Positions 4,024-44,957 of a stretch of DNA of 64,000 nt are shown piece after piece (positions within the stretch are counted from its first letter, which is position 1; each line of letters begins with the position of its first letter). The DNA comes from Minisyncoccota bacterium. Its GTDB lineage: Bacteria > Patescibacteriota > Minisyncoccia > Phycocordibacterales > UBA9973. Both the position numbers and the translations under genes were made by a program. The notes under the pieces are model-generated. The model saw nothing but the letters and a program-made list of their open reading frames with translations. It ran no database searches and was not told the origin of the DNA. The stretch lies in the NCBI GenBank assembly GCA_025453495.1, contig JALOQM010000002.1, positions 12,680-76,679 of the forward strand, given 5' to 3'.

Positions 4024-4104
4024 TGAAAGTAGAATAGTACTTATAATTTTTTTCGCTTCACTACACTTTGAGCAAGCAAGACCGCATGCAACTCATATAT
4101 TTGC

Positions 4105-4126
4105 AGTATATCATATATGATATACT
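4105..4126. promoter_or_regulatory. Perfect 22-bp palindrome AGTATATCATATATGATATACT in the divergent murA/murB intergenic region; candidate operator
   Basis: Exact self-complementarity seen directly. It lies 7 nt upstream of the murB ATG and ~80 nt upstream of the HTH-murA start. Confidence 0.5.
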
Positions 4127-4132
4127 TTTTGC

Positions 4133-5158
4133 ATGCTGGAAAAAGAAGAAAACGCTCTAATTGGATCGCACACGAGCTTTGGTGTTGGGGGACGGGTCGC
4201 TTACTTGGTGCGGATCAAAACTGAAGCTGCTATTCCAAGGGCGATTGCACTTGCAAAACAAGAAGGACTCCCGCTCTATTATCTTGGCCAAGGGTCAAAT
4301 ACGTTATTTGGTGATGGGCTTGTCGCTGCAGTAGTACTCAAGATTGAAATTTCTGGCTTTACTGTAGCTTCAGAGACTGATGTGTATGCAGACATTTTGA
4401 TCGGTGCGGGTGAGAATTGGGATAGCGTTGTCAAACAAGCGATTGACCGTGGACTCTCTGGGATTGAAGCAATGTCAGCAATACCTGGGACGTCGGGAGC
4501 AACTCCATTTCAAAATGTAGGTGCCTACGGTCAAGAGATCAAAGATACACTTATTTCTGTACGCGCATATGATACTAAGACAGAGGCGTTTGTCAGTCTT
4601 TCAAATGCTGAATGCAAATTCGGCTATCGTGACAGCGTATTTAGAAGTGGTGAAAAAAACAGATATGTGATTACCTCGATTACACTCAGACTCTCAAAGA
4701 AACCACCATGTGTGCCTGAGTATCCAGGTGTACAAAATTATTTTGCCGAAAAGGGAATAGCTGTGCCGACACTGCATGACATACGAGAAGCGATTATTGC
4801 TATCAGAAGTACGAAGTTACCAGATCCGAAGCGTATACGTAATGCTGGTTCGTTTTTCAAAAATCCAATAGTTTCTACTATGACGGTTATTGCACTCAAG
4901 CAATCATATCCTGATATCGTTAGTCACCCGACAGCAGACGGAATGATGAAACTCTCCGCAGGGTGGCTTATCGAACGTGCGGGCCTCAAAGGGTGCTCAT
5001 TTGGTACTGTTGGGATATACGAGAAAAATGCGCTTGTGCTTATAAACAAAGGAGATGCAACATTTGCAGATGTTATGGCAGCAAAAGAATATGTCATAGA
5101 GAAGGTAAAAGATTCTTTTGGTATTGAACTTGAACCTGAGCCGATTTGTATACAGTAA
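4133..5158 (+). CDS. murB: UDP-N-acetylenolpyruvoylglucosamine reductase
   Basis: FAD-binding-domain motifs (GVGGRVAYLV, LGQGSNTLF) and a MurB C-terminal domain. 341 aa. Confidence 0.8.
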   Translation: MLEKEENALIGSHTSFGVGGRVAYLVRIKTEAAIPRAIALAKQEGLPLYYLGQGSNTLFGDGLVAAVVLKIEISGFTVASETDVYADILIGAGENWDSVVKQAIDRGLSGIEAMSAIPGTSGATPFQNVGAYGQEIKDTLISVRAYDTKTEAFVSLSNAECKFGYRDSVFRSGEKNRYVITSITLRLSKKPPCVPEYPGVQNYFAEKGIAVPTLHDIREAIIAIRSTKLPDPKRIRNAGSFFKNPIVSTMTVIALKQSYPDIVSHPTADGMMKLSAGWLIERAGLKGCSFGTVGIYEKNALVLINKGDATFADVMAAKEYVIEKVKDSFGIELEPEPICIQ

Positions 5159-6915: not shown

Positions 6916-8547
6916 ATGTCGATTTATTTGATACACATAATTCGACAATCAAACCAAAAACAATATCATATGAATCCAATCCCGATATTCCAGTCGACTT
7001 CCGCGTTTACCAGGAAGTACCAGAATTACTTTAAAATTATTCTGCTGTTTGCAGTTGCAATTGCAATCAACGCAGCGAGTGTTTATGTTTTTCAGTACCT
7101 CTTATGGAGAGGGGAAGCCGACCCTGATGCAAAAGCAACCGGGACAACTCTCTGGGTAATGTCACTCATACTGTTTTTCGGGTGGGCATGCCTTGAGCTT
7201 ACTAAGATATCAAAGAATCAGCCAAAAGGAAACATTTTTCCATCCTTTGCACTCCAACTTCTCCTAAGTATTATTCTGCATGATGCACTTTCTCCACTTT
7301 CGTTTGAATTACGGACAATGGTGGTCACCTGCACAATTCTCGGTTCAGTAATTTTGAAATTTGGCGGTGACGAAGTAGAACGGACATTATTTCGAAAAAT
7401 TGCTCTGCCTACTATCTTTATTGCAGTTGTCGGATATATTGTCATGTTCAGTAGTACACTAGGAATACTGTTTGGTCTCAATTACTTCTTTCCTGGTTTT
7501 ATAGATCCAACAACAGCAGTATTGTTTTCAGCGCTTATGGGATCCACAGATCCTGCAGCGCTGATGTCGACCCTCACTGGAGTGCCTTTTAAAGAAAGAC
7601 ACAAAAAGCTTGTTGGGGTTAGTGTTGCTGAATCTGCAATTAACGATGCAGTCTGTGCAATTTTTGTGACAGTACTGATAGATATGGCGGTAAAAGGCTA
7701 TGCTGTAGATACTTTTGCAAGTATTTTTTCAGGACTTGCAGAAGTTCATAATCTCGTGCATTTTGGTCTTGAAGTTTCTGTCGGGGTTTTGGCTGGTCTT
7801 GTTGGTTGGGCTTGTATGTGGCTATACGAACGTCATAAGTTTATTCACAATGAGACAAATTTTGACCTCATGATTCCACTTGCTGTTCCATTGTTCACAT
7901 ATCTATTGTCGTGGATATTTTTTGGAAATGGTTTTCTTGCTGCATTTGTTGCTGGCTTGATGGCCAACTATAATCACAACAATCATGGTAAGGAAAAAGA
8001 TCAAAGAAAAAGTGATCAAAAGAAACCGATTTTCGACCACACCCTCAAGGTTATGGATACGAAGATTGAATCAATTGCAAAACCTGTCATCTTCATGATG
8101 GCTGGCCCGTTAATTTCGTTAGGAGATTTGGCAAATACAGCAGGCACAGGATTTGTGATTTCACTTCTCTTTATCTTAGTAGCTCGCCCGCTTGCAGTTT
8201 TTTCATCACTACTGCTTGCGAATGGAGCAACTTATGTGTTGTCGAGAATATTTCCATCACGAGAATATTCTATGATTTCATGGCGTGAAATGTTGTTCAT
8301 GTGTGTTGTTGGAGAGCGAGGTGTTATCCCGATCATTCTAACAGTTGTGACTCTGGCAAAATTACCTCATCTTACAACATTGTTGCCATTTGTCGCTTGG
8401 GTCGTGATCTGGACGCTGACGCTACTTCCTGCTATCACTCCGTGGTGGGCAAGAAAACTTGACCTAACGGAAACAGTCGGAAAGGAGGAAAAGAATGGAG
8501 AAGAGCACAATCATTCACTGGGTGCGGAAGCTTCTGTGCATGTTTAA
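6916..8547 (+). CDS. Cation/proton antiporter, CPA1 (NhaP-like) family
   Basis: ~12 TM segments with an NhaP-like motif LMGSTDPAAL (compare ATDPVAV). 543 aa. Confidence 0.45.
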   Translation: MSIYLIHIIRQSNQKQYHMNPIPIFQSTSAFTRKYQNYFKIILLFAVAIAINAASVYVFQYLLWRGEADPDAKATGTTLWVMSLILFFGWACLELTKISKNQPKGNIFPSFALQLLLSIILHDALSPLSFELRTMVVTCTILGSVILKFGGDEVERTLFRKIALPTIFIAVVGYIVMFSSTLGILFGLNYFFPGFIDPTTAVLFSALMGSTDPAALMSTLTGVPFKERHKKLVGVSVAESAINDAVCAIFVTVLIDMAVKGYAVDTFASIFSGLAEVHNLVHFGLEVSVGVLAGLVGWACMWLYERHKFIHNETNFDLMIPLAVPLFTYLLSWIFFGNGFLAAFVAGLMANYNHNNHGKEKDQRKSDQKKPIFDHTLKVMDTKIESIAKPVIFMMAGPLISLGDLANTAGTGFVISLLFILVARPLAVFSSLLLANGATYVLSRIFPSREYSMISWREMLFMCVVGERGVIPIILTVVTLAKLPHLTTLLPFVAWVVIWTLTLLPAITPWWARKLDLTETVGKEEKNGEEHNHSLGAEASVHV

Positions 8548-8653
8548 TAAATATCTATCAGATCACAGGAACTTTTCTTTCAGACTCGGTTCTCACTTCC
8601 GAAGTACAGAATGGCTTGACAATAAAACAAAAGAAGGCAATTAATGTACATTA

Positions 8654-8690
8654 AAAATCCCCGCATAGAGCGGGGATTTCTTTTTTTTTG
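8654..8690. terminator. Bidirectional rho-independent terminator between the convergent antiporter and DsbA-like genes
   Basis: Hairpin AAATCCCCGC-ATAG-AGCGGGGATTT with T-runs on both strands. Confidence 0.75.
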
Positions 8691-8691
8691 C

Positions 8692-9543
8692 TTATCTAAT
8701 ACCAGCTGACCGGATCGTTTTTTCCATGTCAGTATAGTTGTAGGCACCAGCGTACAGTGTCTCATTGAGATAAAATCCTGGCGTACCTTGCGCATTTAAA
8801 CTTACTGCAATCTCTTTGTCGATAGCAAGTTGTCCATCGTAGCTCCCACCCGCTAGGCATGTCTTGAGCAGGGTGGTGTCGACAGCTCCAGAGAGAAATT
8901 CGACAAATTCTCCTGATCTTGCAGTATCATTTTTGACACTTTCGATAAGAGTAAAGCCAGTATTGCTCATGATACGATCGTGTGCTTCCCAAAATTTCCC
9001 TTGCTCGTGTGCACAGTAGAGTGCTTTCATCGCAACTTCACCGGTCCCATGACCTGGATAGTAGACATAGGCAAATGCTATTTCTCCTTTATCAAGTAAA
9101 TTTTTGAATTCTGGTACTGGTGCTACATACGTGCCACCATCAGCAACAAGTGTAAATCTTGGTCCTGCCATTTTATTGAGTTCACTGTTTTTTCCACCTG
9201 CAACTTGGCAGTACGGGCAGCTCGGATCAGCGATTTCAATGACCGTAAGTTTTGCATCTGGATTGCCGAAGCGAATCGTGCTCTTTGCAAATGCGTCTTT
9301 GACCGCAGCAAGCGATACTTTTTGACCCGCTGGAGCTGCTTGTGGTTGTGCTGGCTGCTTTGTCGTCCCGCCAGTCTCTGTCTGAAATGCCGCATAGCCG
9401 AAAGTAAGCACTGCGACGACAAGTGCAATTGAGGCGAGCATCTTTGCTGCATCAGCCTTTTTAATAGCTTCTTCAAGAGAAGCTGGTTCTGTTTGTTTTT
9501 GTTCCATACACTCTATCGTAGACACAGAGCGTGATAGAGTCAA
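8692..9543 (-). CDS. DsbA-family thiol:disulfide oxidoreductase (thioredoxin fold), membrane-anchored
   Basis: CPYC active-site motif (IADPSCPYCQ), N-terminal TM helix and DsbA-like helical insertion. The start may be the second Met (MEQKQ). Confidence 0.65.
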   Translation of the reverse strand: MTLSRSVSTIECMEQKQTEPASLEEAIKKADAAKMLASIALVVAVLTFGYAAFQTETGGTTKQPAQPQAAPAGQKVSLAAVKDAFAKSTIRFGNPDAKLTVIEIADPSCPYCQVAGGKNSELNKMAGPRFTLVADGGTYVAPVPEFKNLLDKGEIAFAYVYYPGHGTGEVAMKALYCAHEQGKFWEAHDRIMSNTGFTLIESVKNDTARSGEFVEFLSGAVDTTLLKTCLAGGSYDGQLAIDKEIAVSLNAQGTPGFYLNETLYAGAYNYTDMEKTIRSAGIR

Positions 9544-11051
9544 GCTCGCTTTTTTCCTGGTTTCTGTTTTTTTACGAACACGTTATCTGGTGCATGTTTG
9601 AGGAGATATGATCTGATATGCCGACGAGCCATACTTGTCTTTGCATATTCAATCCACTTTGGGACTGGTTTCGCTGACTCTTTGGTGATGATCTCGACAA
9701 TTGCACCATTACGTAAACGACTATCAAGAGACACCATTTTGCCATTCATTTTTGCCCCAAATACATGATCTCCGATATCAGAGTGTATTGCATAGGCAAA
9801 ATCAATCGGTGTGGCATCTTCAGGAAGATCAACAACGTCACCTTTTGGTGTCAGTATAAATATTCGGTCTTTGAAGAAATCCATCGCCAAGTGCTCGAGG
9901 AATTCTTCGGGTTCAGCAATTGATTTTTGTATGTCAGCAAGTTGGGCGAGCCATGCGAATTTCTTTGGTAATTTGTCACCTGGTTGTCGTTCTATATCTT
10001 CCTTGTATGAAAAGTGTGCAGCGATGCCGTATTCGGCTTCATCGTCCATATCTCGTGTGCGGATTTGTATTTCTGCGATCGTACCGTTTGTCGAAACAAC
10101 TGTCGTGTGCAGACTCTGATAGCCATTTGGTTTTGGTAGTGCGATGTAATCTTTGATGCGTCGTGGAACCGGCTTCCAGGTGCTATGTACAAGACCAAGT
10201 ACACGATAACATGCTTCCACGTCTTCTACGATGACACGAAGCGCGACAATATCGAGCACTTTGTCAACATTCATATCGTATTTTTTGAGCTTTCGATAGA
10301 GACTAAACGTATGCTTCACTCGGTACTGCAGTGTAAAGGTCATTCCAAGTTCATTGAGTGCTAATTCAAGAATCTCTTTTATTTCCTCAAGTTGTTTTTG
10401 TGCTTCTGGTGTATGCTCAGCAATTATTTTTTTGGTAAACGCGTATTCTTCTGGATAGGCAAAAGGGAAGGCGTAGTCTTCAAGTTCGCCTTTGAGTTTG
10501 CCCATACCGAGTCGCCCCGCAAGCGGAGCATATATCTGAATTGTTTCAAGCGCGATACGTCTTTGTTTGTCTTGGTGTACATGAGAAAGCGTCGATATGT
10601 TGTGGAGGCGGTCAGCAAGCTTGATCATGAGTACACGTACGTCCTCAGCTACTGCAACAAAGAATTTACGCAATGATTCTACATGGCGATCACGACCACG
10701 GTATTTGAGTGCACCGAGTTTGGTAACTCCTTCAACAAGAAAAAGGATTTCTTTGCCGAATTCTCGTTCGATTTCATCTCGTGTAGTTTCGGTGTCTTCC
10801 AGTGTGTCATGGATAAGTCCAGCAGCTATAGTGCGAGCATCCATACCAAGCGCGGCGAGATTCTTGCCGACGGCGAAGGCGTGTGTGAAGTATGGTGCAC
10901 CGCTTGCTCGAAACTGCCCCTCGTGTTTAGCCTTTGCGAAGTCGTGTGCTTTTTGGATAAGCGCGCACTCATCGTTTTCGGGGTTGCTTCGCATGAGTGC
11001 ATATATCTCGTCGATGGCGGTCATGTGTGTATCGTACGGGACTGGGAACAA
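9540..11051 (-). CDS. rel: Short bifunctional (p)ppGpp synthetase/hydrolase (RelA/SpoT homologue, Rel) lacking the C-terminal ACT domain
   Basis: HD hydrolase domain (HDTLEDT), synthetase domain (SLHTTVV...GTIAEIQIRT) and TGS domain. 503 aa. Confidence 0.8.
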   Translation of the reverse strand: MFPVPYDTHMTAIDEIYALMRSNPENDECALIQKAHDFAKAKHEGQFRASGAPYFTHAFAVGKNLAALGMDARTIAAGLIHDTLEDTETTRDEIEREFGKEILFLVEGVTKLGALKYRGRDRHVESLRKFFVAVAEDVRVLMIKLADRLHNISTLSHVHQDKQRRIALETIQIYAPLAGRLGMGKLKGELEDYAFPFAYPEEYAFTKKIIAEHTPEAQKQLEEIKEILELALNELGMTFTLQYRVKHTFSLYRKLKKYDMNVDKVLDIVALRVIVEDVEACYRVLGLVHSTWKPVPRRIKDYIALPKPNGYQSLHTTVVSTNGTIAEIQIRTRDMDDEAEYGIAAHFSYKEDIERQPGDKLPKKFAWLAQLADIQKSIAEPEEFLEHLAMDFFKDRIFILTPKGDVVDLPEDATPIDFAYAIHSDIGDHVFGAKMNGKMVSLDSRLRNGAIVEIITKESAKPVPKWIEYAKTSMARRHIRSYLLKHAPDNVFVKKQKPGKKRA

Positions 11052-21742: not shown

Positions 21743-22204
21743 CTACGATACGATCTTTTTGCGAAGAGCGGCGATGGCATCAGTCAGTGTCTCAAATTCT
21801 GGAATATGGTATGTTTCAGAGACAATATCGACATTACCTTTTTTCCAGAATCCCTCTGGACACACAATGATAAGTTTTCCTGATCTTGCAAAAAGACCTT
21901 CTTCCATAAGTGAGATAGGAGATTGTGTATCAGGATCGTAGTACATGAGGATATGATCACTCGCTTCAAGCGCGGCAAGCTCCCATGCGACTTGTTCGTG
22001 AAATTCCGGATTGTCTTTGTCTTGTATCCATGAACTATCCCATTCCTCACGTCTTGGATTCAGGATAACGATATCCATATCAGCAAGCGCGCTGACAATC
22101 TCACTTTGCCAGTTCCGTGCCGTACCTACTTCGATACTTCCTGCCAGAAAAATTTTTTTTCTGGCATCATCTGGGATTTTGCCCGGCGCTTTTATTTCTG
22201 TCAT
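21743..22204 (-). CDS. Nucleoside 2-deoxyribosyltransferase-like protein
   Basis: KIFLAGSIEVGTARNWQSE matches the NDT-like (Nuc_deoxyri_tr2) signature. Start moved to MTEIK. Confidence 0.55.
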   Translation of the reverse strand: MTEIKAPGKIPDDARKKIFLAGSIEVGTARNWQSEIVSALADMDIVILNPRREEWDSSWIQDKDNPEFHEQVAWELAALEASDHILMYYDPDTQSPISLMEEGLFARSGKLIIVCPEGFWKKGNVDIVSETYHIPEFETLTDAIAALRKKIVS

Positions 22205-22301
22205 ATATTTTTTTATTATACAACCAGTATTCCTATCTTCGTACATGTAAATTGTTTTTTATCAGCTTTTGGTGTAGGTTTAGTATGTTCTTTTATTCTA
22301 T

Positions 22302-22375
22302 TGCCGGTTCGTCTAATGGTAGGACACCGCCCTTTGGAGGCGGGTATTGGGGTTCGAGTCCCTGACCGGCAGCCA
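22302..22375 (+). tRNA. tRNA-Gln (anticodon UUG) with encoded CCA
   Basis: Acceptor TGCCGGT/ACCGGCA (U1-A72), G73 discriminator, anticodon stem CCGCC/GGCGG with loop CTTTGGA, T-loop TTCGAGT, 3' CCA. Confidence 0.8.
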
Positions 22376-22377
22376 GC

Positions 22378-22540
22378 TTGAGCGCTAGTACGAAGTGCTT
22401 CATTTACGGGACTTTACGAATAAAAAGTTTCGAGTCCAGAGAGGGTCAAAATTCAAGAATTTTTGTCTACAGAGTTTTATCCTTTAATCACGGGCTGTTT
22501 TTCATATTTCAGAAAGTTCGAGTCCTTGAAAGGTGTTTTA
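22378..22540 (+). repeat. Repeat F1: ~165-nt tRNA-Gln 3' flank, duplicated at 24553-24709. Contains the 20-nt arm GTTTCGAGTCCAGAGAGGGTC.
   Basis: ~85% identical to 24553-24709 by eye. Holds two further TTCGAGTCC motifs. Confidence 0.7.
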
Positions 22541-22579: not shown

Positions 22580-23623
22580 ATGTTAAAAGCTAAACCGCTT
22601 TATTCTGCCTCGGAAATTCAATCTTCAATCAAAGAAAGGATGCGTCTGTATAGAGTACCCGGAGTAAGTATTTCGTTTATGGACAATGGAAAGCAGACTG
22701 ATGTGGTATATGGGTTTGCCAATCTTAATAAAAAAGAGAAGATGACTGCCTCACATATTTTTCAGGCAGCATCAATCAGTAAACCTATTACCGCATTAGG
22801 GATCGTTATGCTCCATAATTCTCAGTTGATAGACATATATCAACCAGTTAATACTTACCTAAGAAGTTGGAAGTTAAAAACAAAGAAGGGAACACTTTCG
22901 GAAGCGACCATAATCGAGCTTTTGAGCCATTCGGCAGGCATTTCCATTGATGGCTTTTCTGGGTACGAACAAGGAAAGAAATTACCAAAGGAAATAACAA
23001 CTATTCTCGATGGCACATATCCATCAAATACTCCGACAATTATCGAAAACTTTAAGAGGGGTGAATTCCTATATTCAGGGGGAGGTTTTACTGTACTTCA
23101 GAAATTAGTAGAGGAGGTTACGGGTAAGAATTTTTGCGATTTTATGATGAAAGCTGTCTTAATTCCATTCGGTATGAAAAATTCTTTTTACAGCCGTGAT
23201 GCGGTTCGGCGGAAGAAAATTGCAACAGGGTATTGGAGTGAAACTGATCCTGTTGCAAGGGGCTATCATCTTTATCCAGAACTTGCGGCTGCTGGGTTGT
23301 GGACAAATCCATCAGATTTGATGATGCTTATTAAAACTATAAATAAATTATTGAAAAAGAAATCCCTCAATATAGATTTATTATTCAAGCCGATAAAAAA
23401 AGCCCGGCGCGATGCTGTCGGCCTCGGTTTTTTTCTTAATATGGTGGGCAAAGAGGTTGTTGCTGGGCACGATGGTGCAAACGCGGGTTTTAGGAGCAAA
23501 TTCCGCTTCATTGTCGGCAAAAATAAAGCTATTGCAGTCATGACGAACTCAGACGAGGGTTTCCGTTTTATAGATGAGATTGTGTCTGCTTCTGATAAGC
23601 GCTTTGCTAAAACTATTGAATAA
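22580..23623 (+). CDS. Beta-lactamase-family serine hydrolase (PF00144-like, class C-type fold)
   Basis: SxxK motif ASISKP, HSAGIS and YSGGGF...VTGKNF segments, and C-terminal GHDGANAGFRS...VMTNSDEG typical of PF00144. 347 aa. Confidence 0.7.
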   Translation: MLKAKPLYSASEIQSSIKERMRLYRVPGVSISFMDNGKQTDVVYGFANLNKKEKMTASHIFQAASISKPITALGIVMLHNSQLIDIYQPVNTYLRSWKLKTKKGTLSEATIIELLSHSAGISIDGFSGYEQGKKLPKEITTILDGTYPSNTPTIIENFKRGEFLYSGGGFTVLQKLVEEVTGKNFCDFMMKAVLIPFGMKNSFYSRDAVRRKKIATGYWSETDPVARGYHLYPELAAAGLWTNPSDLMMLIKTINKLLKKKSLNIDLLFKPIKKARRDAVGLGFFLNMVGKEVVAGHDGANAGFRSKFRFIVGKNKAIAVMTNSDEGFRFIDEIVSASDKRFAKTIE

Positions 23624-24444: not shown

Positions 24445-24709
24445 ACCCTCTCGAGCCGCGAACTCATTTTAATGAAAATTCAAATGAAAAAGTGATGATT
24501 TAAAGGGATAAAATGAAATCGGTTCGAGTCGCAGAGAGGCAGCCAGTTTGAGTGCTAGTACGAAGTGCTTCATTTACGGGACTTTACGAATAAAAAGTTT
24601 CGAGTCCAGAAAGGGTCGAATTTTATAAATTTTCACTCATAGAGTTTTGACCTTTATTGACGGAACATTTTTCATACTTCAGAAATTCGAGTCCATGATC
24701 GGTCTTTTA
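24445..24709 (+). repeat. Repeat E2: inverted arm GACCCTCTCGAG..GAAC, A-rich spacer, tRNA-Gln-3'-like core GGTTCGAGTCGCAGAGAGGCAGCCAGTTTGAG, then a copy of flank F
   Basis: Direct repeat of the tRNA T-loop-to-CCA region plus the downstream flank. Inverted 20-nt arms face each other across the cassette. Confidence 0.7.
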
Positions 24710-26587: not shown

Positions 26588-27163
26588 TTACTTTTTCTTT
26601 GCTTCCCGAACAATACCGTCGATAGCAACGAGGGCTGAAAGGATCTGGAAGACTGCGATGATCGGAGAATCTGTCTTGAACATCAAGTAGGTGCATACAC
26701 TGTGACCAATGAGGTACAGGATCCATCCGATGATGTTACTCGCTTTCTTGTCGAAAGCCAAGAACAGGGTTCCAAACAGTGAAGTTACTGCAAAGATGAA
26801 TTGTATCACTACCAGTTGTGCAGTTATTACTTGAACTAACAATAAGACACACACAAACACGGTTACAATGAGTACAATCGCCGTAAACAGCACGTTCCAC
26901 TTTTTCAGCAGATCTTTAATCCGGTTACCGTCTTTCGCGCGCGCGATCAGATAACCGTAAGTCATAAGTACAACAAGTGCGACATCGAGCACTACCATGA
27001 TCCAGAGATTTGCTTTGTGTTGCAATTTCATCTGGAGATAGAAGTACAAGGTAATCACAGCTGCACCGATGATTCCATAGAACCATCCGATAGCCTTCTT
27101 TTTGCGAACATAGTATTTGTTCAGAAAGAGAAGTAGTGCGGAGAAAATCTGAAGAACGAGCAT
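26588..27163 (-). CDS. Hypothetical polytopic membrane protein
   Basis: 191 aa with ~6 TM helices. Confidence 0.45.
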   Translation of the reverse strand: MLVLQIFSALLLFLNKYYVRKKKAIGWFYGIIGAAVITLYFYLQMKLQHKANLWIMVVLDVALVVLMTYGYLIARAKDGNRIKDLLKKWNVLFTAIVLIVTVFVCVLLLVQVITAQLVVIQFIFAVTSLFGTLFLAFDKKASNIIGWILYLIGHSVCTYLMFKTDSPIIAVFQILSALVAIDGIVREAKKK

Positions 27164-31187: not shown

Positions 31188-31592
31188 ATGACAACAGATT
31201 GGAAAAACAAACTGAAGGATTGGTTCAATGGGTCAAATCTAGTACTAATCATACTTCTTGCTGTTAGCATTCTTGCAAACGGATACCTTCTGTATCAAAT
31301 GAAAGATAACGGCAAGAAATTGGCATCACAAAATATTCGTACTCTTACCACTCAAAACCTAGACGGCTCTAGTGTTGCGACCATTGAGTCTCCATATGGA
31401 GTGAGAAACGAGGTGTATTCCAAATATGAGGATGGAAAATGGAAAACATACTCAACCTCTACTCCGATTACGGAAACTGAAGTAAAAGAGATGAGAGCCA
31501 CCATCAATGCCCGGCATAAAGCTCTGATGGACTATTTCAGAAAACAGGATGAGCTCATGAACCAATTCTGGAGTTCGTTCTACGGATTCTAA
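31188..31592 (+). CDS. Hypothetical membrane-anchored protein
   Basis: 134 aa with an N-terminal TM helix. Confidence 0.4.
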   Translation: MTTDWKNKLKDWFNGSNLVLIILLAVSILANGYLLYQMKDNGKKLASQNIRTLTTQNLDGSSVATIESPYGVRNEVYSKYEDGKWKTYSTSTPITETEVKEMRATINARHKALMDYFRKQDELMNQFWSSFYGF

Positions 31593-31630
31593 AACAGACA
31601 GCACTCACAATGTGAGTGCTGTCTGTTTTA
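31591..31630 (+). terminator. Strong rho-independent terminator
   Basis: Perfect 18-bp stem AAAACAGACAGCACTCACA-ATG-TGAGTGCTGTCTGTTTT. Confidence 0.75.
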
Positions 31631-31649
31631 GTCAGGTCAAGAATATTCC

Positions 31650-31760
31650 GAATCTGCTGAGCCGTCAGAGACTCGAACTAAAAATTTAGACAATTTCAAA
31701 AATCTAAGTATATATTTAGATCCATATTATTTAAAAATGTTCGAGTCGAATATCCACAGC
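31650..31760. repeat. Relic of the tRNA-Gln-3'-derived repeat family: inverted pair GAGACTCGAAC ... GTTCGAGTCGAA
   Basis: The reverse complement of 31656-31678 reads GTTCGAGTCTCTGACGGCTCAGC, close to the tRNA-Gln 3' end GTTCGAGTCCCTGACCGGCAGCC. 31739-31755 resembles the E2/E3 core. Confidence 0.45.
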
Positions 31761-32037
31761 AAAGTCTTACTAGTATGATATGTCAACGGAACCCAGGCGC
31801 TCGAGATTATTAGAAAGATTGACTTCGTCGAAAAGCGGCTAATGATTTCATTTATCAATGAAAGTAGTTTTATTACAAGAAAAAATACTGATTCAATCAT
31901 AGGAGCTGTGTATTTTGATTTTGACTGCAGAGAGATTCTTCCGCAGCATCCTTGCCTGACTCTAAAACTATTCAAGTAATTGTACGATCTATGCTGGGAG
32001 CTCGACGCAAAGCTGATATAATTGTACTATATAGCCT

Positions 32038-33540
32038 ATGCACGAAAACCTGCCCAAAAAGTTAGACGATTCCAAAGAGTATATAGATACTGAGCTTGAG
32101 AGTGTCAAAAGTCCTGAAAAAAGGAAATATCTAGAAAAGATGTATTTAGATATTGCGGAAATAGTTGCATCAATAGATGCGGAGGCAAAAGAAACACACA
32201 CTGAAGATAGTGTTGTGTATAAAAAAAGACGTAATGCTCTTGATGAAGCACAAGTAATTATTCATGGAATTGTAGCTCCACACAAGAAAGTTGAATCACT
32301 TGCGTCAAATAAAATTATGGTTTCCTATTCTAGAAGAAATGAAGAATGGGCTCGTATTTTGCATCTTGCACTTAGAAAAATGGGCATGGATGTGTGGTTT
32401 GATAATCAAGAGACAAACGTCACTTCGGATGAAGCAGAAGATGGGTATGAAGAACGTGGTGGCGGTCTTGATTTTGGAAATGAATTAGATACATCTATAC
32501 ATGAACAAAGAGGTATCGGTATTGGAAATGAATGGAAAGAATCGATAAATAATGGAATCTCTGAAAATGGGCATGCTGTGGTACTCCTTACGCATGATGT
32601 ACTTGATAAATTTGATGTTATTGGTGGTCAAGAAATTCCTAAAATGATAGAAAAAAATACATCGATTGTTGTTGCTTGTGTTGATAATCCACAAAGGGGA
32701 TCAGTCTTTGAGCGGCTTAAAAAATTTACTCAAGAAAATGAGACACACAAAAAGTATCGAAATTCTATCGAAGTATTGTCAAAGGCGCCACGTGTCGCTC
32801 TTTCGGAAGGAGACTTTACCGCCCCAAAAAGCAACTTAGGTGAAAAAATTGTCGAATCAATTCCTGTAACTGATGCAGATGCAGTCATGACACCTCAAGA
32901 CAATGGTACTCCTGCACAAAGTAGCAACATTCTAGAGTCTATAGATATACTAAAAGAACATGTATCAGAAGATGATTCATACAAAGGACAAGTACAGAAA
33001 CGTGCGTTGGAAGAGTGTCAAATAATTATAAAAAGTCAAACTGATCCAAAGAAACTCGTTGCCAGAAAACATTTGCGATCTCAGTTCTTTCATTATCCAA
33101 AGAGGCAATTGCGCACTCCAGATATATACGACCAAGTGAGTGCCACTTTCGAAGATATGGGTTTGTGGAAAGAAGATACGCAACAAGAAGGTGGATATAC
33201 ACTTTTGCCACTTACTAAAGAAAAAATGAATGATTATACAGCGAGTTTTGTTAGTAATTTTTCTGAATTTGTAGATTCGGATACTCTATGGATTTTAGTA
33301 GGAGAACCAGGCTTTTTTGATTCGCTAAATGAAGTCCTTGAAAAAGCGATACAAGAAAGAGATGTGCTAAAAAAGGGACAAGATACTCGCAAGATAGATG
33401 AGATGCTAAAAAAAATTGCTATTTTAGAAAAATTCAAAAAAACACAAGGACTTTTTGTCAGCGACAATGATCTAAAAAATCCCAAAGGTCTCGCTTCGTA
33501 CTTACTGATGAAACAAGCTCTTTCTGAAGTAAAAAAATAG
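32038..33540 (+). CDS. TIR-domain-containing protein: N-terminal coiled coil, TIR-like core ~aa 95-240, C-terminal ~260 aa of unknown function
   Basis: IMVSYSRRNEEWARILHLALRKMGMDVWFDNQE...AVVLLTHDVLDKF matches the TIR box1-to-alphaC pattern (xSYS..D..W...L...G..VW.D). 500 aa. Confidence 0.55.
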   Translation: MHENLPKKLDDSKEYIDTELESVKSPEKRKYLEKMYLDIAEIVASIDAEAKETHTEDSVVYKKRRNALDEAQVIIHGIVAPHKKVESLASNKIMVSYSRRNEEWARILHLALRKMGMDVWFDNQETNVTSDEAEDGYEERGGGLDFGNELDTSIHEQRGIGIGNEWKESINNGISENGHAVVLLTHDVLDKFDVIGGQEIPKMIEKNTSIVVACVDNPQRGSVFERLKKFTQENETHKKYRNSIEVLSKAPRVALSEGDFTAPKSNLGEKIVESIPVTDADAVMTPQDNGTPAQSSNILESIDILKEHVSEDDSYKGQVQKRALEECQIIIKSQTDPKKLVARKHLRSQFFHYPKRQLRTPDIYDQVSATFEDMGLWKEDTQQEGGYTLLPLTKEKMNDYTASFVSNFSEFVDSDTLWILVGEPGFFDSLNEVLEKAIQERDVLKKGQDTRKIDEMLKKIAILEKFKKTQGLFVSDNDLKNPKGLASYLLMKQALSEVKK

Positions 33541-33703: not shown

Positions 33704-35263
33704 ATGAAAAAACTGTTTCTCATGTACACTATGTGTGTACTGTTGCCGTGTACTGCTAGAGCGCAGACCAATGCTGCGCTTAATGCAAACAATATCTGGA
33801 TTGCCTTTAGTTCTAATGGTGACCTCTATTCGAGTTCGACATTAAATTTTAGCAATGGCATGCAAGTTGCTAATCAGAATCACTTTTCACTCGGTCAACT
33901 TTGGATGGGTGGTTTTGATCAAGGTACTTCATTGCATCTTGCTGCGCAAACATACCGGCAAGCTGGTACTGATTACTGGCCTGGTCCGCTTGATACTACT
34001 ATCGGATCTATTGCTCCTGCTGTGTCAAATCAATGGGACAGGGTGTGGTTTGTGCGAAAGACAACCATTGATAGCTTCAGGCTTGGTCTGTTTGGAAGTC
34101 AGATACCAAGTGCGGTAGCTGATTGGCCTGGTAATGGAGCAAGTGCTGCTAATCAAGCCAAGATACTTGCACCATTTGTGGATCTCAATGCCAATGCTTT
34201 GTATGAGCCACAGCTTGGCGATTATCCAAGGATTAAAGGCGATGAAGCAGTATATTGTATCTTTAACGATGCACAGACTGGTTCTCTTCATGGTCAAAGT
34301 GGGGGAATTCCGTTCGGATTTGAAATTCATGTGATGGCATATGCGTTCTCGTGTCCCAGTGACTCTGCTCTTATGAATTCTGTTTTTGTCCATTTTGACA
34401 TTTACAATCGGACTGACTCTGTCTACACTGATTGTCATGTTGGGCACTTCAGCAACTTTAATTTTGCTTCGAGTATTTTCCAATATGCAGGGACAGATTC
34501 TCTTGGGAAATATCAGTATTTTGCAGATGAGTATATAAATAGTGCAGTGGGAATCGTTTTTCTGGATAAAGAGTTAACAGGTTCATTTTGGTTCAGTAAC
34601 AATGTATGGACTCAGACACAACTTTCACTTAGTACTCCAGGCGATTACTATGAAATGCTCCGAAATCAGTTCCCAGACGGCACTCCATTAACCTATGGAG
34701 GAAGTGGGTATGGAGGCACAAATCAAACCTCGTATTGCTACACGGGGAATCCAGCAACAAATACCGGTTGGCTTGATACGATCGCCTCTGACAAGAGAAT
34801 TGTAGCAAGTTCTGGGCCATTCATTATGCAACCACGAGGTAAATACGAGTTTGATATCGCTCTTATTTATGCAAAAGATTATGTAGGTACTACTCCGTTT
34901 CAATCGACAGTGGTTTTGAACTCGCGAGTTCAAACACTACGTCAATATTTCCAGACAGGCCTAAGTCCTTGCGGAAATATTTCAAGTATCACTGATCCAT
35001 TGCAAGTGGGTACCCTTCATGTCTTCCCAAATCCTGCGCAAGATATACTAACGCTTGCGTTTGATTGTTTGGAAAGCAGTGATCTTATCGTCAATATATA
35101 CGATATTACTGGGAAACTCGTTAAAACAGTAAATCAAGTGACAGTACCTTCGGGTGCACAAGCAGTAACGCTATCGGTGGAAGACTTGGCAACAGGACTC
35201 TATTTGGTAGAGCTCAGCACAACAACCACTCGCAAGGTCGTACAGATTAATGTACTAAAATAA
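33704..35263 (+). CDS. Secreted protein with a T9SS-type C-terminal sorting domain (Por_Secre_tail-like)
   Basis: Signal peptide, then C-terminus LHVFPNPAQDILTLAF...IYDITGKLVKTV...GLYLVELSTTTTRKVVQINVLK typical of T9SS CTDs. 519 aa. Confidence 0.6.
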   Translation: MKKLFLMYTMCVLLPCTARAQTNAALNANNIWIAFSSNGDLYSSSTLNFSNGMQVANQNHFSLGQLWMGGFDQGTSLHLAAQTYRQAGTDYWPGPLDTTIGSIAPAVSNQWDRVWFVRKTTIDSFRLGLFGSQIPSAVADWPGNGASAANQAKILAPFVDLNANALYEPQLGDYPRIKGDEAVYCIFNDAQTGSLHGQSGGIPFGFEIHVMAYAFSCPSDSALMNSVFVHFDIYNRTDSVYTDCHVGHFSNFNFASSIFQYAGTDSLGKYQYFADEYINSAVGIVFLDKELTGSFWFSNNVWTQTQLSLSTPGDYYEMLRNQFPDGTPLTYGGSGYGGTNQTSYCYTGNPATNTGWLDTIASDKRIVASSGPFIMQPRGKYEFDIALIYAKDYVGTTPFQSTVVLNSRVQTLRQYFQTGLSPCGNISSITDPLQVGTLHVFPNPAQDILTLAFDCLESSDLIVNIYDITGKLVKTVNQVTVPSGAQAVTLSVEDLATGLYLVELSTTTTRKVVQINVLK

Positions 35264-43064: not shown

Positions 43065-44957
43065 ATGGCATCACTCGAAGAACTGCGTGATACACGCATA
43101 CAAAAGATAGAGAAACTCAAAGCGGCAGGAATGGATCCATATACTGCTGATTCTTTTCGTACACATACGATTGCAGAAGCGAGTACAGTTTTTGACACAC
43201 TGAGCACATCAGGAGAAAGCGTCACACTTGCTGGCCGCGTACTTGCTATCCGTGGACAAGGTGGTCTTTTGTTTTTTAATTTTACTGACGGCACTGGAAC
43301 GTTTCAAGGCATGGTTAAGAAAGAAGCACTCGACGAAACACTCCTTGCTCTTTTTGTAGACACAGTAGACAATGCGGACTTTATCGAAGTCACTGGCACT
43401 CTTATCGTCACCAAGACAGGCCAGCAGACGATCCTTATACAAACATGGCGGATGCTTACCAAGGCGCTCGCACCGCTTCCTGACAAATGGCATGGTCTCC
43501 AGGATCAGGAAGAGCGTTTCCGCAAGCGCTATCTCGATATCCTCACTGATCCCGCTATCCGTGAATTGTTTGAAAAGAAATCGAAGTTTTGGGACGTGAC
43601 GCGCACGTTTATGAAAGAATGCGGATTCATGGAAGTCGAGACGCCGACGCTCGAAGTGACGACTGGTGGCGCCGAAGCCAATCCGTTCAAGACACACCAC
43701 AAGGATTTTGATATTGATGTCTATCTGCGTATCTCTGTTGGCGAGCTCTGGCAGAAGCGCCTCATGGCTGCTGGATTCCCGAAGACATTTGAGATTGGTC
43801 GCGTCTACCGTAACGAAGGCTCAAGCCCCGAGCACACGCAGGAATTTACAAACATGGAGTTTTATTGGGCGTACGCAAACTATGAAGATGGCATGAATCT
43901 TGTGCAGGATTTATATCGAACGATTGCGACGGAAGTATTCGGCACAACAAAGTTTACAACACGCGGACATACGTTTGATTTTGCCGAAGAATGGCCTCGT
44001 GTTGACTATGCTGACGAAGTACTCAAAAGAACCGGCATCAATGTCTTTGAATCAACAGAAGAAGAGATGAAAGCAAAGCTCGACGAGCTTGGTGTCTCAT
44101 ATGAAGGCGAGAGTCGTGAGCGTCTCATGGATACACTCTGGAAATACTGCAGGAAGCAGATTAGTGGTCCGGCATTTCTCGTGCATCACCCGGTGCTCGT
44201 GTCTCCGCTTTCAAAAGTGCTCGCGAGTGATCCGCGGAAGACCGAGCGCTTCCAGCCGCTTATCGCCGGCAGTGAAGTAGGCAATGGTTTCTCCGAGCTT
44301 AATGATCCGATCGACCAGCGCGCGCGATTTGAGCTCCAGCAAAAGCTTATCGAGCGTGGCGAGGAGGAAGCAATGATGCCGGAGTGGGAATTTGTGGAAA
44401 TGCTCGAGCACGGTATGCCACCAACCTGCGGTTTTGGTTTCGGCGAGCGACTCTTTGCCTTTATGGTAGACAAGCCAATTCGCGAGATACAGCTGTTTCC
44501 GCTCATGCGACCGAAAGATAGCACTCCTAAGAAAAAAGAAACGATGATTGCTGCAGCGCTCATTAATGTGAATGCAGGATTACTTAAGTGGCAAGAAATG
44601 AATACCGTCGCGCATTTGAATGCAGCATTTGGCGCGCGTGTTGGTAGAGAGCTTTTTAGTAAAGATGTAATTCTTTCTCAAGACGAACAAAAAATTAACC
44701 TCAACATCAAGAATGCGATTATGATTCGTGCAGCTGATTCTGCTAAGGTGCTACGAGAAGTTGCATTGAAAGCAAAGGAGGAAGGTTTGCAAGTAGATGA
44801 ATTTACTCGAGAAATGCTCGAGACAACTAATGACAAGAAGATTACAGAGATAACTGCGGCAAAGCCTTTTGAAGAAATAGAGTACCTGGGAGTATTGGTG
44901 TACGGTCCAAAGGAAGCAGTTGAAGAAATAGTCAAAGAGTTTCCGTTGTTCTCATAA
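43065..44957 (+). CDS. lysS: Lysyl-tRNA synthetase (class II) with a ~140-aa C-terminal PTH2-like extension
   Basis: OB anticodon-binding domain and class II motifs 1-3 across ~500 aa. The extra C-terminal segment MIAAALINVNAGLLKWQEMNTVAHLNAAFGA...GVLVYGPKEAV resembles peptidyl-tRNA hydrolase PTH2/DUF2000. 630 aa. Confidence 0.8.
   Translation: MASLEELRDTRIQKIEKLKAAGMDPYTADSFRTHTIAEASTVFDTLSTSGESVTLAGRVLAIRGQGGLLFFNFTDGTGTFQGMVKKEALDETLLALFVDTVDNADFIEVTGTLIVTKTGQQTILIQTWRMLTKALAPLPDKWHGLQDQEERFRKRYLDILTDPAIRELFEKKSKFWDVTRTFMKECGFMEVETPTLEVTTGGAEANPFKTHHKDFDIDVYLRISVGELWQKRLMAAGFPKTFEIGRVYRNEGSSPEHTQEFTNMEFYWAYANYEDGMNLVQDLYRTIATEVFGTTKFTTRGHTFDFAEEWPRVDYADEVLKRTGINVFESTEEEMKAKLDELGVSYEGESRERLMDTLWKYCRKQISGPAFLVHHPVLVSPLSKVLASDPRKTERFQPLIAGSEVGNGFSELNDPIDQRARFELQQKLIERGEEEAMMPEWEFVEMLEHGMPPTCGFGFGERLFAFMVDKPIREIQLFPLMRPKDSTPKKKETMIAAALINVNAGLLKWQEMNTVAHLNAAFGARVGRELFSKDVILSQDEQKINLNIKNAIMIRAADSAKVLREVALKAKEEGLQVDEFTREMLETTNDKKITEITAAKPFEEIEYLGVLVYGPKEAVEEIVKEFPLFS

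Follow-up and report, generated by a model that had tools for sequence, protein, structure and literature searches.

TIR NADases have a central place in the immunity of bacteria, plants, and animals, and the control of their self-association is an active question. These enzymes need head-to-tail assembly to form a composite active site, and an intact BB loop with its conserved glycine (G174 in AbTir) is needed for both assembly and activity. Defence systems are normally operonic. One of them, antiphage Thoeris, has a small bacterial TIR protein, ThsB, which produces cyclic ADPR as a signal for the adjacent ThsA. SpbK of Bacillus subtilis is set in a mobile element. It constitutes a one-gene abortive-infection system, a TIR NADase whose TIRs must assemble head-to-tail, with a phage protein as trigger (PMC12847820). 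In AbTir, the E208A variant is inactive, K202 contacts the diphosphate, and W204 on helix alphaC is required for 2'cADPR formation; an aromatic residue occupies the W204 position in all cyclic-ADPR producers of Manik et al. (bioRxiv 10.1101/2022.05.07.491051). Diverged TIR pairs are found in eukaryotes, where the RRS1 TIR without the catalytic Glu heterodimerises with the RPS4 TIR (PMC7282519), and where two diverged tandem TIRs are present in one chain in Dictyostelium TirE (PMC13142454) and in molluscan Tolls (PMC4929906).

The gene that we compare with these systems is located in a window of 64,000 nucleotides from a Minisyncoccota (Patescibacteria) contig. It extends from an ATG start to a TAG stop (32038..33540, plus strand; stop codon at 33538-33540) and, as reported in the first-pass annotation, encodes a complete protein of 500 amino acids, which is identical to NCBI record MCU0660299.1, a "TIR domain-containing protein" from a Pacebacteria MAG. 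Its homologues align over >90% of the length with 28-39% identity. The family comprises ~14 representatives in a collection of 1.84 billion, in which Patescibacteria were the sole group where it turned up, unlike the AbTir group, and a set of 185,579 species genomes gave two matches. No relatives were recovered from phage or plasmid records, viral contigs, or PHROGs, a result that says nothing about a defence role, and a search of the literature on TIR proteins in Patescibacteria/CPR found nothing specific. The protein consists of two modules, each a helical leader followed by a TIR or TIR-like domain, and since the full-length AF2 model reaches a pTM of 0.75 despite 87 disordered residues, the predicted arrangement of these domains seems to be fixed. 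Within a well-known enzyme family of immunity and toxins, the novelty is modest and lies in the tandem of a catalytic-type TIR and a degenerate TIR copy.

The first leader (residues 26-87; 32113..32298, plus strand) is a helical hairpin in the AF2 model, with helices 26-53 and 59-79 at pLDDT 85-94, in agreement with the N-terminal helical segment that had been described from the sequence. It terminates in the conserved motif YKKRxxALxExxxIxxGIxxPH, and G77 and L88 are invariant in the family alignment. This leader is followed by the TIR domain (residues 88-275; 32299..32862, plus strand), the same order as in AbTir, BtTir, TcpB/BtpA, and PdTir. The proposal of a TIR-like core came with the suggestion to search TIR HMMs, and Pfam TIR_2 (PF13676) indeed matches the intact protein with 37.7 bits (E 3.4e-9), above the curated gathering threshold of 28 bits; all 12 family members searched match this profile as well. 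When the insertion in the BB loop is excised, the TIR_2 score rises to 52.8 bits (E 7e-14; profile positions 1-93 of 122), and a profile search of the PDB finds AbTIR (4.9e-7), BtTir (7.4e-6), TcpB (1.2e-4), SARM1 (1.3e-4), and PdTIR (1.1e-3), so that the AbTir group contains the best sequence matches among solved structures. Loop excision is needed, since with the loop kept the profile search gave only E 0.09-0.9, and a single-sequence search of PDB sequences found nothing. Foldseek with the full-length model returned double-SIS proteins as best matches, none significant in the PDB, which are uninformative because they only mirror two alpha/beta domains; against BFVD the only match was a TIR/WD40 protein (E 0.06).

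Several sequence elements of the domain can be placed. IMVSYS at residues 93-98, which had been recognised as box 1, aligns with TIR betaA (IMVSYSRRN), and the W/D positions likewise hold, with VWFD at residues 119-122 aligning with betaB (VWFDNQETN). The segment VVLLTHDVLDKF, taken for alphaC-like in the first-pass annotation, is instead strand betaC (VVLLTHDVLDK) plus the CC loop, and alphaC itself is formed by residues 193-205. The candidate catalytic glutamate, which was to be located by structure prediction, is on this model helix: Glu199 (GGQE199I; codon GAA, 32632..32634, plus strand) is invariant in 14 of 14 family members, among them P0012, P0014, and P0015, which are divergent. Lys191 (codon AAA, 32608..32610, plus strand), invariant in a nine-sequence alignment, aligns in the HMM alignment with the diphosphate-contacting Lys202 of AbTir. 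With D193 anchored on AbTir D203, K191/D193/E199 correspond to K202/D203/E208, where E199 is located six residues past D193 and E208 five residues past D203; the equivalence of E199 thus stems from a sequence alignment shifted by one residue, in a helix that the HMMER alignment did not extend through and with no structural superposition behind it. Because the TIR HMM match exceeds the threshold and E199 is invariant, neither the lack of any significant profile or structure match nor a missing catalytic glutamate with homologues confined to housekeeping contexts, the findings that had been named as fatal to the TIR assignment, was encountered.

This protein thus has in common with the AbTir group the motifs of betaA, betaB, and betaC and the diphosphate Lys as well as the catalytic Glu, and since the invariant Glu199 and Lys191 align with catalytic residues of AbTir, competence as an NADase is plausible at the sequence level. 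The position of AbTir W204, in contrast, is occupied by V194/I195 and is aliphatic in most family members, so the aromatic residue of cyclic-ADPR producers is absent. Because this position governs cyclic-ADPR formation, plain NAD+ hydrolysis would be the favoured reaction. The TIR of SARM1 is comparable as well, sharing the AA-loop motif 'SY(S)RRN', the betaC end 'ALDK', and a catalytic Glu (E642) on the helix after betaC, although its betaC-to-Glu loop is six residues longer.

In comparison with the AbTir group, the BB loop is 6-33 residues longer across the family and disordered (residues 128-165; 32419..32532, plus strand). The acidic/Gly-rich insertion described previously corresponds to residues 129-164, which have a pLDDT < 50, and a counted 25-residue segment contains nine D/E and five G residues. 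The extra sequence is unconserved among family members, and it splits the Pfam TIR_2 match into two stretches. In most members a glycine, G163 ('GNEW') in this protein, aligns with AbTir G174 and is preceded by the variable disordered insertion.

The 260-residue C-terminal region, for which no family had been assigned, turned out to be an internal, degenerate duplicate of the helical leader and TIR module. Alignment of the N-half with the C-half by hhalign gave a probability of 96.7% and an E-value of 3.8e-10 over 178 columns, and the TIR core alone against the C-half gave E 1.8e-4. The second helical hairpin (residues 298-347; 32929..33078, plus strand), which aligns with leader 1 by hhalign and is present in the AF2 model, carries the repeated motif KRALEExxIIxxxxxPxxL. 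It leads into a TIR-like alpha/beta domain (residues 348-500; 33079..33537, plus strand) with a conserved C-terminal helix LASYLLxKQAL. No Pfam match was found in the C-half of any of the 14 family members. The AF2 model of this half has a pLDDT of 91.8, and its eight best PDB matches in Foldseek are all TIR domains with probabilities of 0.99-1.00, borderline matches with E 3.5e-3 to 3e-2 and TM-scores of 0.41-0.50. In the model, betaB' (377-379) joins betaC' (387-392) directly. Because the BB loop, helix alphaB, and the catalytic Glu have been lost, we refer to this domain as a pseudo-TIR, and for the same reason it is predicted to be unable to form an NAD+ pocket. Compared with the AbTir group, the second degenerate leader and TIR are an addition. 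The RPS4/RRS1 pair, TirE, and molluscan Tolls are eukaryotic, of the NLR or Toll type, and have other domains besides, whereas the pair described here is fused, bacterial, and derived from duplication of the whole leader plus TIR unit. No homology to these eukaryotic pairs was found beyond the TIR fold.

Taken together, we tentatively favour, at somewhat less than even odds, a cytoplasmic, self-contained TIR enzyme that arose by internal duplication and acts as a pseudo-TIR-regulated NAD+ hydrolase, a one-gene effector of the abortive-infection or toxin type. The catalytic part would be the first module, a helical hairpin and a TIR in which Lys191 and Glu199 of the NAD+ site are retained and the BB loop is long, disordered, and hypervariable. 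The second module, a helical hairpin and a TIR-like domain with no NAD+ pocket, would provide a built-in regulatory partner, with the pseudo-TIR packing in cis on the catalytic TIR through a putative interface. By occupying a TIR-TIR surface, the pseudo-TIR may hold the enzyme inactive until a trigger allows the catalytic TIRs of several molecules to assemble head-to-tail via their BB loops. The active enzyme would then hydrolyse NAD+ and arrest the cell, with linear ADP-ribose, and not a cyclic signal, as the most likely product; it is this self-contained NAD+ hydrolysis with cell arrest that would make the protein an abortive-infection or toxin-type effector of Patescibacteria. By analogy, SpbK, also a standalone TIR NADase without a partner gene, may serve as a working model, although SpbK contains just one TIR, no homology beyond the TIR domain was detected, and the gene in the window is located among housekeeping genes. 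SARM1 is likewise an NAD+-depleting executioner that is held inactive by other domains of its own chain, yet these are ARM and SAM domains rather than a pseudo-TIR, and the protein assembles into an octameric ring.

The RPS4/RRS1 pair, in which a Glu-less TIR is combined with a catalytic one, suggests a more specific version. Here the protein would be a one-polypeptide immune module, an in-cis bacterial counterpart of RPS4/RRS1 with an executor TIR fused to a Glu-less sensor or guard pseudo-TIR, in which a phage protein displaces the hypervariable BB loop and thereby causes assembly and NAD+ depletion, a minimal defence for genome-reduced Patescibacteria. We consider this version unlikely. As a catalytic TIR naturally fused to its own degenerate copy, the protein would be a compact system to study cis-regulation of TIR assembly. 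It would also be a further candidate for defence or toxicity in Patescibacteria, for which experimental knowledge of the immune repertoire is poor. If it is inactive or has a housekeeping role, it would simply be a TIR paralogue specific to this lineage whose second domain lacks an annotation.

The gene neighbourhood bears on these possibilities. The surrounding genes have housekeeping and stress functions (Hsp20, GroES/EL, MsrA, YibE/F) and show no defence matches beyond generic HTH similarity. The first-pass annotation had seen no ThsA, SIR2, or STING partner, and none of these domains was found in the ORFs scanned ~10 kb on either side of the gene; cyclase and Argonaute genes were not found near it either. 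The search for partners in homologues upheld the standalone status, as 11 homologous loci share no conserved partner gene. Genes of ~550 amino acids adjoining the homologues in four loci (L005, L006, L020, and L021) were considered as a conserved partner and rejected, since they are mutually unrelated and the one in L021 is a family paralogue. No defence island was present in any locus, and most homologous loci are as unremarkable as the window. The placement of the protein with Thoeris, CBASS, and related defence systems was not borne out: its best match in PADLOC-DB 2.0 is a weak one, to PDC-S66 (E 8.3e-4, 16.9 bits). Fusion to a SAVED, STING, CAP12, or APAZ sensor, as in the TIR effectors of CBASS, Pycsar, and SPARTA, was not found either, with only traces of SAVED_TIR (E 0.01, confined to residues 91-125, the betaA-betaB part of the TIR) and of CAP12-PCTIR_TIR, weakly matched by two of 12 family members. 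Evidence that the gene belongs to Thoeris, CBASS, or another catalogued defence system was thus not found.

A signal-generating TIR of the ThsB/CBASS type, with its effector (ThsA, SIR2, SLOG, or STING) encoded elsewhere in the genome, would be compatible with the resemblance of the TIR core to AbTir, a 2'cADPR producer, and with the limited reach of the window, 64 kb out of a contig at least 178 kb long. However, the operonic organisation that is normal for defence systems would place such a partner nearby, and none was found among the window ORFs scanned or within ~10 kb in the 11 loci; this includes ThsA-type effectors (SIR2/SLOG or Macro/TM), with no ThsA, SIR2, SLOG, or Macro gene in any locus of the family. 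In addition, in contrast to ThsB, the cyclase-linked residue is aliphatic, and we regard such a role as quite improbable.

The housekeeping and stress neighbours, together with the lack of defence islands, also fit a housekeeping enzyme, a metabolic one, or a scaffold without enzymatic activity, in each case with no conflict role, for example in regulated NAD+/ADPR turnover in an importer of NAD precursors. In line with this, a PnuC-like NMN transporter is encoded 5 kb upstream, and NUDIX hydrolases are located 1-5 kb from the homologue in two loci (L006 and L008). Against this stand the extremely patchy spread of the family, the tandem paralogues in one genome, where they lie beside a SLATT/DUF4231 gene (L021), the hypervariable BB loop, and a deviant GC3, which are untypical of core metabolism and make this alternative doubtful. 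In another locus (L006), the TIR homologue has a serine recombinase and a tRNA as immediate neighbours. Rarity of the family, the L021 paralogues, the L006 recombinase and tRNA, and low GC3 were cited as accessory-gene traits for an effector role, and the housekeeping and stress context and the weak PADLOC matches were counted against it.

The gene directly downstream (33704..35263) encodes, as previously indicated, a secreted T9SS-CTD protein (Por_Secre_tail, E 1.7e-13). Patescibacteria are mostly episymbionts, and TIR NADases are among the toxins used in warfare between bacteria and against hosts, so the presence of this secreted neighbour could point to an NAD+-depleting toxin that is delivered into the host bacterium of the episymbiont or into competitors. 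Yet the TIR protein has neither a signal peptide nor a transmembrane segment nor a domain associated with secretion, the N-termini of the family are polar, disordered, and variable, and no conserved adjacent immunity or secretion gene was found across the homologous loci. Delivery is accordingly the least probable of the roles considered here, and the cytoplasmic NAD+ hydrolase remains our preferred interpretation.

The TIR gene has the lowest GC3 of the 48 genes in the window (z -2.47) and was probably acquired horizontally. No copies of the 406-bp intergenic region upstream of it were found elsewhere. A perfect 21-bp inverted repeat (31589..31631; 100% complementary in the repeat search) resembles a terminator, overlaps the stop codon of ORF 31188..31592, and lies between the groES-groEL unit and the TIR gene. 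Behind it lies the inverted pair of segments that had been pointed out earlier, with TTCGAGTC at 31670-31677 (minus) and 31740-31747 (plus); this motif occurs eight times in the window against 2.5 expected. The first-pass annotation considered one arm a close match to the 3' end of tRNA-Gln, which suggested to it another decayed integration junction. The match holds for an 18-nt core, GTTCGAGTCTCTGACGGC (31661..31678, minus strand), which agrees with the T-loop/acceptor part of tRNA-Gln (22352-22370) in 17 of 19 aligned columns with one gap; the local alignment score of 26 was reached by 0 of 500 shuffles and by one of 147 other window segments. By BLAST, in contrast, the match has an E-value of 3.1, and neither ARAGORN nor Rfam found a tRNA at the site. 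A tRNA pseudogene or known RNA was looked for in 31550-32080 and rejected, the only matches being spurious miRNA matches to the terminator hairpin. A tRNA-Gln relic, as read from this alignment, may thus be called suggestive but unproven. The tRNA-like core and the low GC3 speak for a possible integration junction. Against it, the single core has neither a partner direct repeat nor a downstream minus-strand tRNA and does not qualify as a tRNA-targeted island, an integrase is missing from the window ORFs that were scanned, and the same bases form a palindrome that may be a regulatory or terminator hairpin. tRNA genes within ~1 kb of the homologue are no more frequent than expected, at two of 10 loci.

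What the second arm shares is confined to the 9-mer GTTCGAGTC, whose inverted copies (31670-31678 and 31739-31747) form the 9-bp main stem of a nested imperfect palindrome (31655..31761). This palindrome is not repeated elsewhere in the window or in homologous loci, and folds with an MFE of -24.5 kcal/mol, compared to -13.2 +/- 3.1 for shuffles (z -3.67). It therefore has nearly an even chance of being simply the stem of a ~100-nt nested hairpin, serving as a terminator, regulatory RNA, or protein-binding palindrome, in which case the T-loop likeness would be coincidental and no integration scar. The stable fold with the two 9-mers as main stem, the poor BLAST match without a tRNA or Rfam match, and the missing integrase and partner repeat are consistent with such a hairpin. 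On the other hand, the match runs past the 9-mer into acceptor-stem bases, the neighbouring TIR gene is compositionally foreign, and the repeat array at tRNA-Gln contains the same T-loop core six times.

The 500-aa open reading frame at 32038..33540 (+ strand) that was proposed in the first-pass annotation was confirmed, including an ATG start, and the encoded protein is identical to MCU0660299.1 (NCBI), which is encoded on a contig of 178,081 bp that is also in JGI. The protein had been called a TIR protein from its sequence, and searches with TIR profiles bore this out. Pfam TIR_2 matched the intact protein with 37.7 bits (E 3.4e-9; curated threshold 28 bits), in two stretches because of an insertion, and after removal of residues 129-162 the score rose to 52.8 bits (E 7e-14), in a single stretch covering profile positions 1-93 of 122. 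With the insertion trimmed, TIR_2 was matched by 12 of 12 members of the small Patescibacteria family to which this protein belongs. A PDB search with a profile of the trimmed core returned TIR domains only: AbTIR (E 4.9e-7), BtTir (7.4e-6), TcpB (1.2e-4), the SARM1 TIR (1.3e-4) and PdTIR (1.1e-3), followed by weaker matches to Roq1, the SPARTA TIR-APAZ and Cat1. The TIR_2 score and the TIR-only PDB matches therefore show that the assignment was right. This TIR annotation is already public; new here are the second domain, the expanded BB loop and the restriction to one lineage.

A full-length AlphaFold2 model based on nine family sequences (mean pLDDT 74.8, pTM 0.75) places a helical hairpin (helices at residues 26-53 and 59-79) in front of the TIR domain. 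The latter comprises betaA (92-96, IMVSY), alphaA (99-114), betaB (118-120, VWF), a disordered stretch (129-164), alphaB (166-173), betaC (179-184, VVLLT), a short helix (186-190), alphaC (193-205), betaD (209-215), the alphaD helices (223-249), betaE (252-255) and alphaE, which runs to residue 272. Since the disordered stretch lies between betaB and alphaB, the insertion is, in the model, exactly within the BB loop. Its acidic and glycine-rich character, noted earlier, holds, with 9 Asp/Glu and 5 Gly among the 25 residues counted, and across the family the extra length of this loop varies from 6 to 33 residues, without conserved sequence. The segment VVLLTHDVLDKF, previously described as alphaC-like, is actually betaC plus the CC loop.

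The C-terminal region (residues ~240-500), to which the first-pass annotation could assign no family, proved to be TIR-derived by profile, core alignment and model. Pfam models matched none of the C-terminal halves of 14 members (0/14), and a search of PDB sequences with a C-half profile gave no match. A profile-profile comparison of the N-terminal half (residues 25-285) with the C-terminal half (residues 297-500) aligned 178 columns with 96.7% probability and an E-value of 3.8e-10. In this alignment the leader helices coincide (YKKRRNALDEAQVIIHGIVAPHKKV in the N-half, VQKRALEECQIIIKSQTDPKKLV in the C-half), as do betaA and betaA', alphaA with its "GM" and alphaA' with "GL", and betaC and betaC', and the correspondence continues up to betaE and alphaE. 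With the leader removed, the TIR core still aligned colinearly with the C-half (E 1.8e-4, 112 columns). When the C-half was modelled alone from 14 sequences (pLDDT 91.8, pTM 0.85), the best eight Foldseek matches in the PDB were all TIR domains, of RUN1 and RPV1, with individually borderline scores (probability 0.99-1.00, E 3.5e-3 to 3e-2, TM 0.41-0.50), and the Roq1 TIR ranked 15th; these predicted-fold matches agree with the profile-profile result. In the model, betaB' (377-379) passes almost straight into betaC' (387-392), and the C-half lacks the BB loop, alphaB, the SYSRRN and FDNQE motifs and the conserved Glu, because of which it cannot form the TIR NAD+ pocket. G375, P391, Q470 and Y488 are invariant in the C-half in the nine-sequence alignment; with 14 sequences aligned G375 and Y488 still are, and Q470 nearly so. 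The best PDB matches of the full-length model were double-SIS proteins, which fit two similar alpha/beta domains in one protein. Although 87 residues are disordered, this model reaches a pTM of 0.75, so that the two modules may be packed in a fixed arrangement. Altogether, we consider the two-module architecture, a TIR followed by a pseudo-TIR, well supported.

The N-terminal TIR has retained candidate active-site residues. Invariant in the nine-sequence alignment are, among others, S96, Y97, S98, R99, R100, N101, F121, D122, E125, L184, K191, G197 and E199, and E199 remained so when the divergent homologues P0012 (AREI), P0014 (AWEV) and P0015 (QQEI) were added. In an HMM alignment with AbTIR, K202 and D203 correspond to K191 and D193, and the candidate catalytic Glu follows one residue later than in AbTir (E208 at D203 +5, E199 at D193 +6); in the SARM1 alignment, C629 corresponds to F192, and the loop that leads to E642 is longer. 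In AbTir, the E208A mutant is inactive, K202 touches the NAD diphosphate, and activity requires G174 and S176 of the BB loop (Manik et al., bioRxiv 10.1101/2022.05.07.491051). Judged from these residues in sequence alignments, NADase competence of the domain is plausible. Cyclisation by AbTir requires W204, a position that is aromatic in every TIR making cyclic ADPR (Manik et al., bioRxiv 10.1101/2022.05.07.491051) and that corresponds to V194 or I195 here, and linear ADPR, with NAD+ depletion, is more likely to be the product than a cyclic signal. In a rival reading, the protein would act in trans as a Thoeris-like signaller. Membership of Thoeris itself, and likewise of CBASS, Pycsar or SPARTA, was ruled out, because their defining partners or domains were searched for in the protein, among the window ORFs scanned and in 11 homologous loci, and are absent.

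TIR NADases, as shown for AbTir (bioRxiv 10.1101/2022.05.07.491051) and SpbK (PMC12847820), are active only in head-to-tail TIR assemblies, in which each BB loop opens the site of the neighbouring TIR. Here, a catalytic TIR bearing an oversized and variable BB loop shares its chain with a second copy of the domain that has no Glu. We propose that the pseudo-TIR may act as a partner in cis, controlling or sensing how the catalytic TIR assembles, and that the latter, once released, would deplete NAD+, so that the protein would be a one-gene toxic or abortive-infection effector. A comparable pair is known from plants, where the RRS1 TIR, which lacks the Glu, pairs with the RPS4 TIR (PMC7282519), whereas in our case both are fused in one chain. 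The bacterial coiled-coil-TIR NADases are closest to the N-terminal module, which itself belongs to the TIR_2 family. Tandem TIRs occur in eukaryotes, in Dictyostelium TirE (PMC13142454) and in molluscan Tolls, and a narrow search of the literature on tandem bacterial TIRs did not find a bacterial fusion of a TIR with a pseudo-TIR.

The family is small. A word-indexed search of 5.8 billion clusters gave 10 entries, two of which are alternative starts of one gene, and an exhaustive HMMER search of 1.84 billion representatives gave 15 proteins at E <= 1e-10, 14 of them family members or fragments; the other ~160 matches concerned the TIR core alone. The family profile also matched P0016, an unrelated protein of 1773 aa, in six distinct segments (E 1.6e-14), a hint that the database contains a multi-TIR architecture outside the family. 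Of 185,579 species genomes, just two encode a member, both of them Patescibacteria/Paceibacterota MAGs. A metagenome scan added no new member, and searches of viral contigs, phage records, plasmids and PHROGs gave none.

The search for partner genes that had been suggested was run on 11 homologous loci, a family too small for neighbourhood or covariation statistics, and revealed no conserved neighbour. Four loci have special neighbours, each a single case. In L021, tandem TIR/pseudo-TIR paralogues (846-2435 and 2604-4229, +; 35.6% identity to our protein) are transcribed divergently from a DUF4231/SLATT two-TM gene (248-667, -; 28.7 bits, cut-off 24.7), the only conflict-system-type neighbour among the 11 loci. 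In L006, the TIR homologue is followed after 44 bp by a tRNA-Arg (7990-8062, +), with which the end of a convergent gene for a large serine recombinase (8030-9625, -) overlaps; a MerR gene comes next, and the arrangement resembles an integrated element that borders on the homologue. In L001, which carries the closest homologue, a DGR (RVT_1 reverse transcriptase and bAvd, 3597-4732) adjoins a 1390-aa Peptidase_S74-like protein, ~5 kb upstream of that homologue. In L022, the TIR homologue is preceded at 33 bp, on its own strand, by the end of an HMUDK_hel gene (PF18723; 3763-4668, +); this domain is the helical domain of a 5-hmdU DNA kinase and is associated with hypermodified phage DNA. A defence role can be suggested tentatively from the habits of the family, its patchy occurrence, the paralogues and the composition. 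Rival explanations are a role in metabolism or as a scaffold, and delivery as a toxin.

The gene content of the window is typical of a Patescibacteria chromosome (MiaA, MurA, MurB, ParB, TopA, DprA, SerRS, Dus, HolB, tRNA-Gln, TrmB, PnuC-like, an ECF sigma factor, Hsp20, GroES/EL, MsrA, YibE/F, RpoD, PBP2, GreA, LysRS and MraZ/W), and among the neighbours scanned with PADLOC there was no defence-model match past generic HTH similarity. The TIR gene has the lowest GC3 of the 48 window genes (0.246, z -2.47) and a GC of 0.361 (z -2.0), which is compatible with horizontal acquisition. The PnuC-like NMN transporter gene (26588-27163, -; PF04973, 2.4e-9), which precedes the putative NADase gene by 5 kb, has an unusually high GC3 (0.531, z +2.67). 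Downstream follow genes for a Por_Secre_tail protein, MsrA and YibE/F. The first of these, reported earlier as a T9SS-CTD protein, indeed carries a T9SS C-terminal sorting domain (519 aa, 33704-35263, +; E 1.7e-13) and a signal-peptide-like N-terminus. T9SS is known as a Bacteroidota system, and its sorting domain is present here on a Patescibacteria contig. Further on, a LysRS-type protein (43065-44957, +) combines tRNA-synt_2 and an OB fold with a C-terminal DUF2000 (2.7e-21), an unusual fusion.

Upstream, a 21-bp perfect inverted repeat with a 1-nt centre (31589-31631), overlapping the stop codon of ORF 31188-31592, sets the groES-groEL-134aa unit apart from the TIR gene and looks like a bidirectional terminator; Rfam miRNA matches to it were spurious, produced by the inverted repeat. 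The 406-bp spacer between this hairpin and the TIR gene contains the inverted pair of TTCGAGTC segments that the first-pass annotation regarded as a tRNA-Gln-derived relic. TTCGAGTC is over-represented in the window (8 copies, 2.5 expected), and 6/8 copies are accounted for by a 165-nt direct repeat (22351-22515 and 24521-24685, 84% identity, 2170 bp apart), which starts within tRNA-Gln (22302-22375), in its 3' end. Between the two repeat copies lie two beta-lactamase-family genes (22580-23623, PF00144; 23627-24439, PF13354) and no integrase. Each repeat copy, with ~10 nt beyond, holds three T-loop-like TTCGAGTC cores spaced 76-88 nt, a pattern that resembles an array of att-site relics.

The other two TTCGAGTC copies form the inverted pair (31670-31677, -; 31740-31747, +). 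The minus-strand copy lengthens to GTTCGAGTCTCTGACGGC (31661-31678) and is identical to the T-loop/acceptor 3' part of tRNA-Gln in 17 of 19 aligned columns, a score attained by 0/500 shuffles and by 1/147 other window segments. The BLAST E-value of the match is nevertheless 3.1, tRNA and Rfam models did not match, and the plus-strand copy has the 9-mer alone in common. No partner repeat is present, and scanning ORFs across the window turned up no integrase. Pairing of the two 9-mers gives the main stem of a nested palindrome (31655-31761; MFE -24.5 kcal/mol, z -3.67). We give about equal odds to an ancient att-type scar and to a simple palindrome with a regulatory or terminator function. Directly upstream of tRNA-Gln, 21743-22246 (-) encodes a nucleoside 2-deoxyribosyltransferase-like protein (PF15891, 8.6e-34), a family that is also among the weak PDB matches of the TIR profile.
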